The notes under the pieces were generated by a model, which saw nothing but the letters and a program-made list of their open reading frames with translations, had not been told where the DNA came from and did no database searches. Positions 8,776 to 46,285 of a stretch of 46,601 bases of DNA are shown piece by piece (within the stretch, counting starts at the first letter, position 1; the number at the start of each line of letters is the position of its first letter). The stretch lies in assembly GCF_036365525.1 (NCBI RefSeq), contig NC_090407.1, forward strand, positions 31,320,444-31,367,044. Direction: 5' to 3'. The stretch is from Heterodontus francisci (Eukaryota). A program made the translations under genes and the position numbers.

Positions 8776-9165
8776 TCTCTCTCCATTTAAATATTATACT
8801 GCTTTCCTATTCCTGCCAAAGTGGACACGTTCACATTTTCCCACATTATACTCCATTTGCCAAATTTTGCCCACTCACTGAACCTATCTATATCCCTTTG
8901 TAGACTCTTTACCTTCTCTTGACAACTTACTTTCCTTCCGATCTTGGTGTCATCAGCAGATTTAGCTACCATACTTTCTGTCCCTTCATTCAAGTCATTG
9001 ATATCAATTGTAAATAGTTGAGGCCCCAGCACTGATCCCTGTGGCAATCCACTAGTTACAGCTTGCCAACCTGAAAAAGACCCAATTATCCCTGCTCTCT
9101 GTTTCCTGCTAGCTAACCAGTCCTCTTTCCATGCTAATATGTTACCCCCTAAACCATGTGCTCTG
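8776..9165 (-). mobile_element. CR1 LINE RT fragment
   Basis: Translates to VTSGLPQGSVLGPQLFTIDINDL...VAKSADDTKIG...LQRDIDR. Confidence 0.9.
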
Positions 9166-9368
9166 GTGTGGCTCAAGTCTTTGGAATGGGGCTTGAACCC
9201 ACAATCTGGTGAAAGAAAAGAACAAAATATTTGTGCCAAAATTAATCTTTCTAATTTTATAATATATTTTTAATAATTTACTAACCTCTGATGTTTGGTT
9301 TACAGCCCGAAAAGACATTTGGTCTTGAGCCAGCGTGGGGGTTGTGGAAAATATCTCCCTTTCTGAGC

Positions 9369-9794: not shown

Positions 9795-9960
9795 TGGGGC
9801 CTGGCTACAAATCAAATTAAAAAACCCTCCATTTTGAAGCGCTCTCTCCCTTGCTGCTGCTCTCAAGCTGGAAGGCCTCTGATTGGCTCTCCAGCTTCTA
9901 GGGCCCACCTGCCTGCCTTAATTGGACGGTAAGTCTGCCCTCTGACCATTAATTAAAGGG

Positions 9961-10352
9961 GGAGGCGGTGGCGTAGTGGTATTGTCGCTGGACTAGTAAC
10001 CCAGAGACCCAGGGTATTGCTCTGGGGACATGGGTTCGAATCCCACCACAGCAGAAGGTGGAATTTGAATTCAATTAATAAATCTGGAATTAAAAAGCTA
10101 GTCTAATGATGGCCATGAAACCATTGTCGGGTGTTGTAACAACTCCTCTGGTTCACTAATGTCCTTTAGGGAAAGAAATCTGCTGTCCTTACCTGGTCTG
10201 GCCTACATGTGACTCCAGACCCACAGCAATGTGGCTGACTCTTACATTCCCTCTGAAATGGCCTAGCAAGCCACTCAGTTAGGGCAATTAAGAATGGGCA
10301 ATAAATGCTGGCCTGGCCAGCGACGCCCACATCCCATGAATGAATAAAAAAA
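9961..10352 (+). mobile_element. tRNA-headed SINE sharing its head/body and tail with the LINE at 39317-42512
   Basis: A box TGGCGTAGTGG (9969-9979), B box GGTTCGAATCC (10033-10043), body to gccactcagtt (10280), then tail gggcaataaatgctggcc...gcccacatcccatgaatgaat plus poly(A). Confidence 0.9.
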
Positions 10353-10887
10353 AATTAATTGACCGCTCCGGGGAAAATCACAATGAGTGTCTGTTTCTTA
10401 CACAGTTAGGGCTTCTGAGCCCCATTTCAGTCTGACAGTGGGATTCAGAAGCCCGCAGGGACAATCCTGCACATTGTTTACAAAGGGATCGATGCCTATG
10501 TTGAGTGGTAACCATTTATGGGTTTGTGTCTGTAAAGGGGCAAGAGAGAAAAAGGGATCCACCAAATGGGGCTAGTGCGCTCTTGTCTGGATTTCTATGC
10601 AGTGGCACAAAGTGCTTTAAAATTATTTTTGAATTAGGCTGCCTTGGAATGGTGGTATTCATTCAGATGGTTCTGTTGATGAGTCATACTACTGTGGTCG
10701 TTGCTGCTCTGAATCTCTTCTCTTGCTCCTCCAAATATCCTCCTCCCCTCAACCTCACTGAGTTTAAGATGCATCATACCATCTCCTGTTAGAACTCACT
10801 GGCCTCAAGATTAACTGCCTCCTGATGGGTGGGAGAGAGTTGGCAGTTAAAGTGAAATGTACAGAATGTGGCCCCTACCATTTTTTA

Positions 10888-11179
10888 AAATTATTCATTC
10901 GGAGGATGTGGGTGTCGCTGGCTAGGCCAGCATTTATGGTCCATCCCTAATTATGATGAGCTGCCTTCTTGAGCTGCTGCAGTCCATGTGGGGTAGGTAC
11001 ACCCACAGTGCTGTTAGGAAGGGAGTTCCAGGATTTTGGCCCAGCAACGGTGAAGGAACAGTGATATAGTTCCATGTCAGAATGGTGTGTGGCTTGGAGG
11101 GGAACTTGCAGGTGGTGGTTTTCCCATGCATTTGCTGCCCTTGTCCTTCTAGTTGGTAGAGGTCATGGGTTTGGAAGGC
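10888..11179 (-). mobile_element. 5'-truncated copy of the 39317-42512 LINE family
   Basis: Collinear with 39317-39620. Both translate to HGxTTTCKFPSKxHTILTWNYI. Confidence 0.85.
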
Positions 11180-29659: not shown

Positions 29660-29960
29660 TTTTCACTCGTTCTTGGGACGTGAGCGTTGTTGACAAGGCC
29701 AGCATTTATTAACCCTCCCTAATTGCCCTCGAGAATGTGGTGGTGAGTCGCCATTGCAGTACATGTGGTATAGGCAGGCCCACAGTGCTGTTAGGGAAGG
29801 AGTTCCAGGATTTTGCCCCAGTGACGATGAGGGAATGGTGATATAGTTTCAAGTTAGGATGGGTGTGTGGAGGAACTTGCAGGTGGTGGTGTTCCCATGT
29901 GTCTGCTAGGTGGTAGAGGTCACAGATTTGGATGATGCTGTTGAATGAGGTGTGGTGAGT
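29660..29960 (-). mobile_element. 5'-truncated copy of the 39317-42512 LINE family
   Basis: Collinear with 39320-39640. Confidence 0.8.
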
Positions 29961-30254
29961 TGCTATTCCCTGAACGGCCCACCAGTCACAGAGGATAAGT
30001 ATCCCATGCGCATTGAATGTGCAAAATTTCAAAACAGTTCATTCCAGGTAAGGGTGAAGACCTACAGCTACCTCTAATTCAGTATTAATTGGTAATTTCA
30101 GTCAACATGAACAATGCAAAATGCTCCACGATGAGGTACTCCTCTGTTGTTGGTGTTCAGGCACGTTGCAGGTTGCAGAGAGGATAAAGCTTAGCCATGC
30201 TCTCCAAAGGGGTGTCCAAGCTTCTGTCTTCCTGGGCCACACTGTAAGTATGAT

Positions 30255-30640
30255 CATGTAGTGGTTATATTACTGGACCAGTAATCCAGAAAACATCAAC
30301 TCGATTTGCACTGTGGCAATTTTAGAATTTGAAATCAGGTAAAATAAATCCTGAAATAGGGCAGGAAAACAAATGACTATGAAGCTGTGGTCATTGGATT
30401 GTCATAAAAACTCAACTGGTTCATGAATGCCCTTTCGAGAAGGAACCGGTTATCCTCTGAACTGCCCTATGAATGGCCCAGCAAAGTACTCAGTTGAATC
30501 ACACCATTGCAAAGAACAACAAGAATATATAGAAGTACAAGAAGAAGGTCCATTAGCAGCTTCTCAGGACATCTAGGAATGGGCAATAAATGCCAACCTT
30601 ATCAGTGATGCCCACATCTGGAGAATGAATCATTAAAAGA
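30255..30640 (+). mobile_element. Older, diverged relative of the 9961-10352 SINE
   Basis: gtagtggttatattactggaccagtaatccaga head, ctggttca body and gggcaataaatgcc...tgcccacatc tail. Confidence 0.7.
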
Positions 30641-37151: not shown

Positions 37152-38035
37152 TAATGGGAGCAAACTGTAATGTCTTCTGAGATGTTCCCCTGAGTTGTAA
37201 AGCAGCAATGACACAGAGACCTGATCACCCCAGCACCTCTCAAGTTTCATCGTCCATTACATTATGATATTATGCCCAATAACCTAGTTCGGTGCAATGA
37301 TGCTGCAACGTATTATAATAATCTGTATCACAATATAATTAGACGTTATGTTTCCTGTTCCTAAACTCCCAGAGGGGAGCTGCCCTCAAAGGGATTAAAG
37401 CTCAGTAATGGGATTACAGCACTGTCAGGCCGATCAATGAATTTATCCGTTTTGCTTTTTAGATTATGTTGTTCTGGGGATGTGGGTGTCACTAGTGAGG
37501 TTGGCATTTATTGCCCGTTGCTAGGAGCCCTGAGAAGGTGATGGTGAGCCCTCTCCTTGAACTGCTGCAGTCCGTGATGTTAGGTCGAAAAATTCCAGAA
37601 TATCTACCCTGCGACAATGGAGAACGGTGAGCATGAAGGAATGACAACATATGTCCAAGTCAGGATGATGGGTGACTGGAGGACTTGCCAGCAATGCCCA
37701 CATCCCCAGAGCAAAATAATTTAAAAAAAGGAACGGATAATTCACTGATGGGCTTGGCACTACTGTAATCTGATCACTGAGCTGTGGTTCCTTCAAGGGC
37801 AGTTCCCTGCTGGGAGTTTAGGATTAGGAAACTTACCCTCAAATCATATTGTGATACAGATTATTATAATACGTTGGAGTATCATATTGTAATGAACTAG
37901 AATGTTGGATCATAATATCATAATGTAATAGGACCATGAAAGGCGAGAGGTGCTGGACAGATTGGGTCTCTGTGTCGTTGCTGCTGTTACACCTCAGAGA
38001 ATACATCAGGACACAGGTACAGTTTGTTCCCATTA
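37152..38035. repeat. Long diverged inverted repeat (arms ~37152-37500 and ~37680-38035)
   Basis: For example, caacgtattataataatctgtatcacaat versus attgtgatacagattattataatacgttg, and taatgggagcaaactgta versus tacagtttgttcccatta. Confidence 0.9.
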
Positions 38036-39316
38036 TTGGAGGTGATGGTGTTCCCATGATATTGCTCCTGTCGCTCTTACTTTATATTATTATATTATAT
38101 TTTCATGTATTTCACTATATTTATTACTGTATTATACTGATATCACACTATAATGTTACAGTCTGACATTATATTACTCTGTATTACGCACTCTGCTCCC
38201 TAAAACTCAAAGCTTCGTCACACATAATTCTCTAAACACTGGTCTTCCTTGTCATAGAATTACATAGAATTTACAGCACGGAAACAAGCAATTCGGCCCA
38301 ACTGGTCTGTGCTGGTGTTTATGCTCCACATGAGCCTCCTTCCTTCTAAGGCGAGTGAAAAGCAACCCTGCACTTTGCAACGGTAAGAGTATAAAACTGC
38401 TATGCTCAGGGTATTATAGTTACAACATTTAAAGAGAGGTGGAAAAAAAGTCAGGCCTGTAAAGTCATCTGAGGTGCCACACCACTGGCAGGACTCCAGA
38501 TTGATCTGCATTGCAGTGTTTAAACACAGTTCATGGTATAAATCCATGGTGTGACTCACATTAGATCACTGCTACATTTTCTATTTCTGGAGGCACTATA
38601 AGCATGTTGTAACCTTTCAGTAGAAAACCTTCAGCTTTTTATAACTAACTGGAAAATGTACAAGCACTGAACAGAAAGATAAATTGTACCTCATCTTAAA
38701 TCTCTGGACAAAGCATATTTTTGAGCCAATTCTATTGCTTCCTCACCTCTGTAACTAAAACCCAAGCTAACCATCACTAGATCATCACATCTTCACTCCT
38801 CTCCTCTCATATTCTTTCCAACCTTGGTGATGTCCTGTACTACAGGCCTCGGCCTTTACCTATCCTTCTCAATTTAAAGGAGACAGATTTCCCTTACTTT
38901 TAACTACATTCTTGTGTTGCGATTACACCATCTCTTGTATTCTGCTACTTACGGCCTCTTCCTGTGGAGATTCAGACCTGGTCTCTTAGTTAGCTGAAAC
39001 CTCAGTCAGTGCAACTGTCGCACGCAACAGCACTGAGCTGCACATGCTCTGTGCAACATCAATAACCTGGTGCTCAGCCCAGTCAGTGACCGTAATATAT
39101 GGAAAGAAAAGGCCAGCAGCATATAAACTGCACGGTGTGTGACGGTCTATTTCAGTGCCTGTTGCACATCCCTTGCACTTATTTTTTTTTATCGGGGAAC
39201 AACACTGCACAAGCCTAACACATTTCGTTACATTAGCTCACTGAAAGTGAGGTTTACACTAATTTGTCATTTTTAAGACTCGTACTTTTACAGATTATTC
39301 CGTTTATCTCCTTTTT

Positions 39317-42300
39317 AAAAATTCATTCATGGGATGTGGGCGTCGCTGGCTAAGCCAGCATTTATTGCCCGTCCCTAATTGCCTTTGGGAAGGTGGTGGT
39401 GAGCTGCCTTCTTGAACCGTTGCAGTCCATGTGGGATAGGTAGACCCACAGTGCTGTTAGGAAGAGAGTTCCAGGATTTTGACCAGCGACAGTAAAGGAA
39501 CGGCGATATAGTTCCAAGTCAGGATGGTGTGTGACTTGGACGGGAACTTGCAGGTGGTGGTGTTCCCATGCATCTGCTGCCCTTGTCCTTCAAGGTGGTA
39601 GAGGTCGCGGGTTTGGAATGTGCTGTCTAAGGAGCCTTGGTGCGTTGCTGCAGTGCATCTTGTAGATGGTACACACTGCTGCCACTGTATGTCGGTAGTG
39701 GAGGAAGTGAATGTTTGTGGATGGGCTGTCATCAAATGGGCTGCTTTGTCCTGGGTGGTGTCGAGCTTCTTGACTGTTGTTGGAGCTGCACCCATCCAGG
39801 CAAGTGGAGTGTATTCCATCACACTCCTGACTTGTGCCTTGTAGATAGTGGACAGGCTTTGGGGAGTCAGGAGGTGAGTTACTCACTGCAGGTTTCCTAG
39901 CCTCTGACCTGCTCTTGTAGCCACAGTATTTATATGGCTACTCCAGTTCAGTTTCTGGTCAATGGTAGCCCCTAGGATGTTGATAGTGGGGGATTCAGCG
40001 ATGGTAATGCCATTGAATGTCAAGGGGAGATGGTTAGATTCTCTCTTGTTGGAGATAATCATTGCCTGGCACTTGCGTGGCGCAAATGTTACTTGCCACT
40101 TATCAGCCCAACCCTGGGTATTGCCCAGGTCTTGCAGCGTTTCTACACAGACTGCTTCAGTATTTGAGGAGTTGCGAACATCCCCACTTCTGACCTTATG
40201 ATTGAAGAAAGGTCATTGATGAAGCAGCTGAAGATGGTTAGGCCTAGGACACTACCCTGAGGAACTCCTGCAGTGATGTCCTGGAGCTCAGATGATTGAC
40301 CTCCAACAACCACAACTTCCTTTGCGTTAGGTATGACTCTAACTAGCAGAGAGTTTTCCCCCTGATTCCCATTGACTCCAGTTTTGCTAGGGCTCCTAGA
40401 TGCCATACTCGGTCAAATGCTGCCTTGATGTCAAGGGCACTCACTCTCACCTCACCGCTTGAGTTCAGCTCTTTTGTCCATGTTTGAACCAAGGCTGTAA
40501 TGAGGTCAGGTGCTGAGTGGCCCTGGCGGAATCCAAACTGGGTATCACTGAGCAGGTTACTACTAAGCAAGTGCTGCTTGATGGCACTGTTGATGACACC
40601 TTCCATCACTTTACTGATGATTGAGAGCAGGCTGATGGGCAGTAATTGGCCGGGTTGGACTTGTCCTGCTTTTTGTGTACAGGACATATGTGGGCAATTT
40701 TCCACATTGCAGGGTAGATGCCAGTGTTGTAGCAGTACTGGAACAGCTTGGCTCGGGGTGCAGCTAGTTCTGGAGCACAGGTCTTCAGTACTATTGCCAG
40801 AATATTGTCAGGACCCATAGCCTTTGTAGTATCCAGTGCCTTCAGTCGTTTCTTGATATCACGCGGAGTGAATCGAATTGGCTGAAGTCTGGCATCTGTG
40901 ATGCTGGGGACTTCAGGAGGAGGCCGAGATGGATCATCAACTCAGCACTTCTGGCTGAAGATTGTTGCAAATGCTTCAGCCTTATCTTTTGCACTGATGT
41001 GCTGGGCTCCCCCATCATAAAGGATGGGGATATTTGTGGAGCCACCTCCTCCAATTAGTTATTTAATTGTCTACCACCATTCACGGCTGGATGTGGCAGG
41101 GCTGCAGAGCTTAGATCTGATCTGTTGGTTATGGGATCGTGTAGCTCTGTCTATCGCATGCTGCTTACGCAGTTTGGCATGCAGATAGTCCTGTGTTGTA
41201 GCTTCCCCAGGTTGACACCTCATTTTGAGGTATGCCTGGTGCTGCTGCTGGCATGCCCTCCTGCACTCTTCATTGAACCAGGGTTGGTCTCCTGGTTTGA
41301 TGGTAATGGTAGAGTGGGGGATATGCCGGGGCATGAGGTTACAGATTGTGGTTGAGTACAATTCTGCTGCTGCTGATGGCCCACAGCACCTCATGGATGC
41401 CCAGTTCTGCATTGCTAGTTCTGTTTGAAATCTATCCCATTTAGCACGGTGATAGTGCCACACAACACGATGGACGGTATCCTCAATGTGAAGGCGGGAC
41501 TTTGTCTCCACAAGGACTGTGCGGTGGTCACTCCTACCAATACAGTCATGGACAGAAGCATCTGCGACAGGCAGATTGGTGAGAACAAGGTCAAGTATGT
41601 TTTTCCCTCTTATTGGTTCTCTCACCACCTGCCGCAGACCCAGTCTAGCAGCTATGTTCTTTAGGACTCGGCCAGCTCGGTCAGTAGTGATGCTACCGAG
41701 CCACTCTTGCTGATGGACATTGAAGTCCCCCACCCAGAGTACATTTTGTGCCCTTGCCACCCTCAGTGCTTCCTCCAAGTGGTGTTCAACATGGAGGAGT
41801 ACTGACTCATCAGCTGAGGGAGGGCAGTAGGTGGTAACCAGTAGGAGGTTACCTTGCCCATGTTTGACCTGATGTCATGAGACTTCATGGGGTCCGGAGT
41901 CGATGTTGAGGTCTCCCAGGGCAACTCCCTCCTACTGTAGACCACTGTGCCACCACGTCTGCTGGGTCTGTCCTGCCGGTGGGACAGGATATACTCAGGG
42001 ATTGTGATTGCAGTGTCTGGGACATTGTCTGTAAGGTATGATTCTGTCTGTCTGACTATGTCAGGCTGTTGCTTGACTAGTCTGTGGGACAGGTCTCCCC
42101 AGATGTTAGTAAAGAGGACTTTGTAGAGTCGACAGGGACTGGGTTTGCCGTTGTCGTTTCCGGTGCCTACTTCGATGCCAGGTGGTCTGTCCAGTTTCAT
42201 TCCTTTTTACTGACTTCGTAGCGGTTAGGTACAACTGAGTGGCTTGCTAGGCCATTTCAGAGGGCATGTAAGAGTTAACCACATTGCTGTGTGTCTGGAG

Positions 42301-42512
42301 TCACATGTCGGCCAGACCAGGTAAGGACAGCAGATTTCCTTGAACCAGATGGGTTTTTACAACAATCGACAATGGTTTCATAGCTTTAATTCCATATTTA
42401 TTAATTAAATTCAAATTCCACCTTCTGCTGTGGTGGGATTCGAACCCATGTTTCTAGATCCCGGGTCTTTGGGTTACTAGTCCAGTGATAACACCACTAC
42501 GCCACCGCCTCC
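39317..42512 (-). mobile_element. Near full-length CR1-group LINE with a tRNA-derived 5' head and a single (now broken) EN-RT ORF
   Basis: A box 42504-42494, B box 42446-42436, ATG at 42200. APE endonuclease motifs: TESYL, GGTVVY, VGDFNVH, LDLVLTN, SDH. RT motifs: GPDNI, QFGFR, LDIKAAFDRVWH, GVPQGSVLG, YKAQVRSVMEY. 3' tail ...catcccatgaatgaat. Confidence 0.92.
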
Positions 42513-44929: not shown

Positions 44930-46285
44930 CTTGGAGTGGGAGAGGGAGGATCCAGTTGTCGTGGTCCACGTGGGAACCAACGACATAGGTAGAACTAGGA
45001 ATGATACTCTGCTGAGAGAGTTCGAGGAGTTAAGGTCCAAATTAAAATGCAGAACATCAAAGGTAATCAACACTGAATTGTCACCTGGGCCATGCGCCAA
45101 TTGGCATAGGGTCAAACAGATTAGAGAATTAAACATGTGGTTCAAAGAGTGGTGTTGGGAAGAAGGGGTTTTGATTCATGGGGCACTGGCACCATTACGC
45201 AGGAAAGAGTGAGCTATTTCATTGGGATGGGCTCCACTTAAACTGGGCTGGGACCTGTGTCCTGGCCAATCGTATAAATAGGGCTGTGGACAGGACTTTA
45301 AACTAACAGAGTGAGGGGGTGGGTAGGGTTTGGGTTAAGGGGGATTTCGAAATCCAAAGAGAAAGGTCGAAGCATCGGAACAATATAATGTTGTGGGTAA
45401 AGACAAGCAGAATGGAACAGGAAGGACAGAGAGTTTAGCAAAATTTGTACATCAGCAAATAAGGTCATTGCAGGGGATAGAGGTAAAAAAATGAAATTAA
45501 AGCTTCTTTATCTGAATGCATGAGGAATCTGCAATAACGTAGATAATCTAATGGCACAAATAGAGGTAAATGATTTTGATCTAATCGCCATTACAGAGCC
45601 AGGGTGATCAAGGTTGTGAAATAAATATTCCAGGGTACACAATATTTTGGAGAGACAGACAGAATGGCAAAGGGGGAGGCGTAGCTGTATTAGTAAAGGA
45701 TGACAGAAGGACATTAGTGAGAAAGGATCTGGCCTCAGAAGATCATGAAGCAGAATCAGTATGGGTGGAAATTAGGAATAGCAAGAATCAGAAAACACTA
45801 GTGTGAGTGGTTTTTAGGTCCCCTAACAGTAGTTATACTGTTGGACAGAGCATTAAAGAAGAAATTATTGGAGCTTGTAACAAAGGCAGTGTAATAATTG
45901 TGGGGGACTTTAATCTTCACATAGACTGGGACAATGAAATTGGCAGGAGTGGTCTAGAAGATGAGTTTCCAGAATGTTTTTGTGACAGTTTCTTGGAGCA
46001 ATACATTGTGGAACTGACTAGGGATAAAGTTATCTTAGATCCAGTATTGTGCAATGAAGCAGGGTTAATTAGTAATGTCGGAGTAAAAGATCCATTGAGA
46101 AATAGTGATCATTATACAACTGAATTCCATATTTAGTTTGAAGGTGACATACTCCAATCGCAAACAAAAATCTTAAACTTAAACAAAGCCAATTATGTAG
46201 GTATGAGGTGAGAACTGGTTAAGGTTAATTGGCTAAATAGACTAAAAGGTATGGCGGTAAATGATCAGTCGGAAACGTTTAAAGA
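44930..46285 (+). mobile_element. Conventional CR1 LINE, 5' part: ORF1 esterase and ORF2 endonuclease, degenerate
   Basis: DPVVVVHVGTNDIGR (SGNH esterase of CR1 ORF1), then LYLNA, LIAITE, GGGVA, VGDFNLHIDW and SDH. Confidence 0.9.

Follow-up and report, generated by a model that had tools for sequence, protein, structure and literature searches.

Protein-coding LINEs are conventionally assigned to Pol II and non-coding SINEs to Pol III, and SINE-like 5' ends have reportedly been found on some LINEs such as Ingi/Vingi. Zenon LINEs normally lack ORF1 (PMC13343379), and the Zenon-1 consensus sequences published for the elasmobranchs CarCar, RhiTyp, ScyCan, HypSab and SquAca (Stuart et al. 2026, PMC13343379) are 3.24-3.31 kb long, with a single ORF and an A tail. 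In Lepidoptera a Zenon-derived SIDE, Persaeus, is described as an internally deleted non-autonomous partner that lacks both homology to tRNA and a promoter for Pol III (PMC6740152). The words tRNA, promoter and polymerase do not occur in the main text of PMC13343379, so it gives no description of the 5' head, the avoidance of T-runs, the lack of an AUG or the partner SINEs that we report here. Our search of the full-text literature found neither an autonomous Zenon described with a head of the Pol III type nor a Pol III-transcribed LINE, although an earlier mention elsewhere is possible. The architecture that we describe is real and family-wide; it stands on a known LINE family and is apparently undescribed.

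The stretch of DNA analysed (the window, 46,601 nt from Heterodontus francisci) contains, on its minus strand, a dead full-length copy of elasmobranch Zenon-1 at 39312..42512, the family length being about 3.29 kb. A tRNA-derived head occupies 42423..42512 (-), with the A box at 42504-42494 and the B box at 42446-42436, so that the first-pass annotation of this DNA was right to place both boxes at the 5' end. Next comes a leader or body at 42233..42422 (-) that is common to the LINE and two partner SINE families. The remains of a single EN-RT ORF span 39375..42246 (-), with EN at about 42122-41515 and RT at about 40654-39900, both matching Pfam; a 54-nt 3' UTR and the tail lie at 39312..39374 (-), where AATAAA at 39366-39361 precedes T5A5 (about T1A9 in the family). 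The copy is decayed, with at least seven in-frame stops, several frameshifts and a difference of 4.5% from the family majority sequence, and no target-site duplication was found at it. As the annotation had claimed, there is no sense-strand run of four T (T4) between 42512 and 39322, the first T5 falling at 39321-39317, and its dozen or so T4 runs on the opposite strand correspond to the 12 runs of A4 or longer that we counted on the sense strand. The longest T4-free stretch on either strand of the window measures 3,440 nt and contains the element, the next longest being 1,502 nt.

Judged by its sequence, the window element represents the Zenon LINE already published from elasmobranchs (PMC13343379). 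It has a single APE-RT ORF without ORF1 and a poly-A tail, and its head and leader follow the published elasmobranch Zenon-1 rows near letter-for-letter over the first 400 nt, the part compared, where no sequence difference was noticed; length, single ORF and A tail are also as published. The Zenon elements of hagfish, coelacanth (CR1-5_LCh) and Lepidoptera likewise have an A tail and lack ORF1. In a quick RT tree, which held no labelled Zenon, the shark element fell apart from canonical CR1 and with unlabelled invertebrate-type proteins (SH-aLRT 99). The window copy leaves no room for an ORF1, as had been pointed out, and the family majority sequence (3,289 nt with one 975-codon frame) has neither an ORF1 nor a T4, in agreement with what the annotation expected of a family consensus. 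The missing ORF1 is normal for Zenon and therefore no evidence for Pol III.

The family carries the head as an integral part with a sharp boundary. It is not confined to the window copy, a possibility that the annotation had raised against itself: the exact head-to-ORF junction pattern has 7,333 matches in this genome, and the elasmobranch rows in the supplement of PMC13343379, compared by eye over their first 400 nt only, all begin with an A box (7/7, from five species, one a ray), keep an intact B box in 6/7 and show no T4 in 7/7. Searching the genome with the element's 5' 813 nt gave 10,730 candidates, of which 40 were scored, 39 being retrieved besides the window copy. In this 5'-biased sample the head was reached as part of the copy in 30/39, with two more ambiguous. 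A mid-ORF query returned 10 copies out of 20 contiguous to the head, and the others were either broken or 5'-truncated within family positions 328-665, no second 5' end recurring among them. The family's 5' boundary is sharp and lies 10 nt before the A box, the two boxes are spaced 64 nt start to start, and ARAGORN called intact heads as tRNA-Thr(agt) in 6/10 of the family and SINE loci scanned. One locus considered as a second Zenon family (L046) was rejected as such, being of the same family.

Outside the elasmobranchs the picture differs. Unlike shark Zenon, two hagfish rows and one coelacanth row showed no tRNA-like head by eye in their first 400 nt, and all three carry T4 runs at their 5' ends. 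Upstream of 80 metagenome homologue ORFs we found no A and B boxes together, and T4 was present in 80/80. Since the elasmobranch rows carry the head and the hagfish and coelacanth rows and Persaeus are without it, the head was likely acquired within elasmobranchs.

Two SINE families are the Zenon LINE minus its ORF, amplified on their own. One such partner lies in the window at 9959..10354 (+) and consists of the first 321 nt of the LINE fused to the final 65 nt, with a head that ARAGORN classes as tRNA-Thr. Its junction has 333 exact copies, with the two-part form in 20/20 loci checked, and a junction 2 nt longer has 3,659 exact copies. In both families the head is about 97% like the LINE head, and the tail corresponds to the final 65-67 nt of Zenon. 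The independent amplification of SINEs that carry this head supports, by inference, a working Pol III promoter. An internally deleted non-autonomous partner is what Persaeus is to its own Zenon. A likeness is found also in tRNA-derived SINEs (SINE2), T+ SINEs such as B2 among them, which share with Zenon an A/B-box head, a sharp 5' end, a short A tail and an upstream AATAAA (PMC8466645); in contrast to tRNA-derived SINEs, Zenon is 3.3 kb long and encodes its own EN-RT. Among sharks, SacSINE1 and the DeuSINEs (PMC5499810, PMC7245038) are tRNA-headed SINEs like the Zenon partners, but SacSINE1 is described with an L2-2_CM-like tail and a Deu body where the partners carry the Zenon tail. We rejected a Deu domain or SacSINE1 identity for the head, which, like the leader or body behind it, bears no by-eye resemblance to five published Deu rows; the partners are neither SacSINE1 nor DeuSINEs.

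The absence of T4 from the ORF is by itself a weak signal (P=0.14-0.25 with Markov models of order 1 and 2, about 0.08 under synonymous-codon permutation and 0.03 in a regression on homologues); the graded avoidance of all T-runs is a strong one. At synonymous sites T was chosen in 159/470, 46/228, 4/52 and 0/5 cases where the resulting run was 1, 2, 3 and 4 or more (Fisher 7e-6), and no such trend was seen for A, C or G. Under the permutation, which holds protein and codon usage constant, TTT runs numbered 4 against 13.2 expected, with 0 of 4,000 shuffles as low, and T4 or TVTTT 0 against 5.0 expected (P=0.003). In mammalian assays the shortest sequences reported to terminate Pol III are TVTTT and TTTT (PMC8466645). 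The depletion that the annotation had proposed to measure against codon-shuffled controls is thus present when T3 and interrupted runs are counted and falls short for T4 alone.

These controls also bear on the possibility that the lack of T-runs is a by-product of a C/A-rich composition and low Phe content, the head being incidental. The ORF is indeed only 20% T and 1.8% Phe, and some nulls leave T4=0 at P=0.08-0.25; yet the deficit of TTT persists with protein and codon usage fixed, and an RTE ORF of this genome with equal T content (0.21) has 25 TTT and 4 T4 runs (TTT contrast P=1.4e-4), which largely refutes this explanation and leaves it highly improbable. The RTE control family (L068, L270-L299) is young, with copies 96-97% alike and a frame that runs for 1,055 codons or more. 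Further controls came from two canonical CR1 fragments of different families in the window, at 44930-46285 (+), where the five sense T4 runs of the annotation were confirmed, and at about 8800-9190 (-). Two CR1 families of this genome have 14 and 13-15 T4, and neither these nor the composition-matched RTE showed a T3+ trend. The RTE did, however, show a mild shortage of interrupted T-runs (21 vs 35, P=0.006; 7 vs 13, P=0.016), so part of the T-avoidance is generic.

Among 63 homologous ORFs of at least 450 codons the shark Zenon ORF is the most T-run-depleted (log OR -1.81 vs a minimum of -0.90), most homologues being more T-rich. The next most depleted is that of a metagenome contig (L178; log OR -0.90, T3 25 vs 40), upstream of which no A or B boxes were found. 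Across 40 copies of the family (119 kb) there are 18 sense T4 vs 542 A4. An older subfamily, whose majority sequence was built from 3-20 copies per column, differs at 58 codons synonymously and at 24 non-synonymously and still has no T4, and neither subfamily's majority sequence contains an internal T4 terminator. Purifying selection has acted on the ORF, in which runs of T are avoided on the sense strand. That the element shuns the target of its own endonuclease was rejected as the cause, as this would be strand-symmetric, yet A4 runs occur as often as expected. In the commonest head allele (14 copies) a TATTT lies between the A and B boxes; this counts against the Pol III reading, TATTT being a moderate terminator in mammalian assays (PMC8466645).

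We consider it probable, at roughly 0.65, that elasmobranch Zenon is transcribed by Pol III. Like a Pol III type 2 transcription unit, the element has an A and a B box close to its 5' end and is free of internal T4. TFIIIC and Pol III would use the boxes of the head, T-run avoidance would reflect selection against premature termination, and transcripts would terminate in T-runs of the tail or of the flanking DNA, with priming at the short A tail in the manner of SINEs. The annotation had proposed that the ORF was selected to be read through by Pol III: the avoidance that this proposal implies is present, while the use of Pol III is itself deduced from sequence features. The element is also present in contigs assembled from RNA runs, which are silent on strand, start and polymerase.

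An unlikely alternative is that Zenon took over the 5' end of a SINE and yet depends on Pol II, with a promoter either in the head or in the flanking DNA. Recombination with the partner SINEs would then maintain the A and B boxes, and U-runs would be avoided for another reason, for example RNA stability, cryptic splicing or decay. The SINE and LINE heads do evolve together, and the mild T-depletion of the RTE suits this explanation, but the depletion in Zenon is several-fold above that of the equally intronless, composition-matched RTE and of all 63 homologues. Ten upstream AUGs and no in-frame AUG suit cap-dependent scanning poorly, whereas LINEs are generally regarded as Pol II transcripts (PMC5786205). 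The AATAAA upstream of the tail counts against the Pol III reading in that it fits Pol II as well, although it is found in Pol III-transcribed T+ SINEs too (PMC8466645). Both polymerases might also be used, with Pol III RNA being reverse-transcribed and the protein supplied in trans from rarer Pol II read-through transcripts. Such dual use would account for the head and for the avoidance of T-runs without requiring an uncapped RNA to be translated, and the SINE partners show that trans-mobilisation occurs; we nevertheless regard it as quite improbable, given that purifying selection on the ORF is most readily understood if the RNA that is copied also encodes the protein used, and that the missing AUG would still be unaccounted for.

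The 3' end is relevant to transcription by Pol III, our preferred reading, in that no fixed 3' terminator was found, a feature not required of SINEs, whose transcripts can end in flanking DNA. The T5 at 39321-39317, which the annotation had picked out as the first sense-strand run, does not represent the family: T>=4 occurs in 20/73 LINE and SINE 3' ends and a single T in 41/73. The length of T is bimodal and falls as the length of A rises (rho -0.48), and long T is scattered over subfamilies and also occurs in SINEs; an inherited terminator was rejected on these grounds. Given this trade-off and the 20/73, the window T5 likely arose after insertion. A comparable post-insertion growth of T-runs at short A tails is described for B2 and other T+ SINEs (PMC8466645), and Zenon ends parallel it. 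The A-rich tail of the family is about 9-11 nt long, with AATAAA 45 nt before it; copies with both AATAAA and a T-run would resemble T+ SINEs (PMC8466645), AATAAA fitting Pol II equally.

The start of translation required a different assignment from that of the annotation, in which an ATG at 42198..42200 (-) led into EN. This ATG is in the EN frame in the window copy only, through a 1-nt insertion (about 42138). Across the 40 copies examined it is in frame in 1/35 measurable ones, 26/35 sharing one out-of-frame spacing, and we rejected it as the family start. In contigs of other organisms two non-CpG differences are silent in the EN frame and alter the AUG frame. The family ORF runs for 975 codons from stop to stop, with its first Met at residue 285, past the EN domain, and its leader has 10 AUGs upstream of the EN start; a single copy (L048) has 538 open codons, the N-terminus among them. 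Ahead of EN lies a basic stretch that can be aligned to the N-terminus of P0009, the best relative from outside sharks, and the likely start of coding is therefore close to the GCT at 42222.

Twelve nt upstream is a predicted hairpin at 42235..42260 (-), whose 7-nt anticodon-like loop, CUAGCAA, is complementary to GCTA at 42219..42222 (-), a candidate codon mimic in the EN-RT frame. GCTA is kept in all five published species across a variable linker, in frame in 4/5 and off by one in the SquAca-1 row, and contigs of four organisms show no indels of at least 30% share around it. We considered a start set by a tRNA-mimic IRES, in which translation would begin without Met at or just after GCT through pairing of the loop with the codon. 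The model likened is domain 3/pseudoknot I of the dicistrovirus type 6 IGR IRES (bioRxiv 10.1101/2024.04.17.590008), which the Zenon leader would resemble in a predicted anticodon-like loop that could pair with an in-frame codon before a non-AUG ORF; the upstream pseudoknots and L1.1 motifs are features of the IRES, and the likeness of Zenon to it is a resemblance only. This start is speculative and less likely than not. The folding z-score of the hairpin is only -0.8 to +0.5, so its stability is unremarkable; it is invariant and hence offers no compensatory changes or covariation, and a competing local hairpin is present. Rfam gave nothing below E=0.2 and no IRES family at E<=10, and viral contigs gave no match. 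Other starts were rejected: neither of the near-cognate codons ACG and ATA that follow the hairpin is conserved, and an in-frame AUG-GCC-UAG in the hairpin with read-through, or a UUG after it, is disrupted in the SquAca rows by a stop and in RhiTyp by a linker shorter by 1 nt, rows that are consensus sequences and may contain errors.

Taken jointly, these features could describe an autonomous Zenon transcribed by Pol III, whose uncapped RNA would be translated without an initiator Met through a type 6 IRES-like leader; the SINEs would be ORF-deleted forms with promoter and ribosome-binding region retained and the frame-setting codon lost, and they could capture the enzyme at the ribosome. As a whole we regard this combination as doubtful. 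With a Pol III promoter joined to a 975-codon ORF, the family, which has full-length copies in the thousands and is conserved across sharks and rays, would in itself be a natural protein-coding Pol III transcript. It would pose two testable questions, the translation of an uncapped 3.3-kb RNA and the origin of SINEs by ORF deletion, and a compact single-RNA insertion system is a possible use.

Several minor observations concern the copies themselves. Of those reaching mid-ORF (L110-L129) half are full length, a high share for a CR1-group element, and the truncations cluster at family positions 328-665. Many copies (L031-L069) have short deletions at small direct repeats, at family position about 540 and elsewhere; about half lack the same 4 nt, which breaks the frame. 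The window also holds four older pieces from the 3' part of Zenon or of its SINE, at 10893-11178 (-), 29667-29964 (-), 37477-37688 (-) and 30557-30630 (+), which are 76-87% like the family majority sequence.
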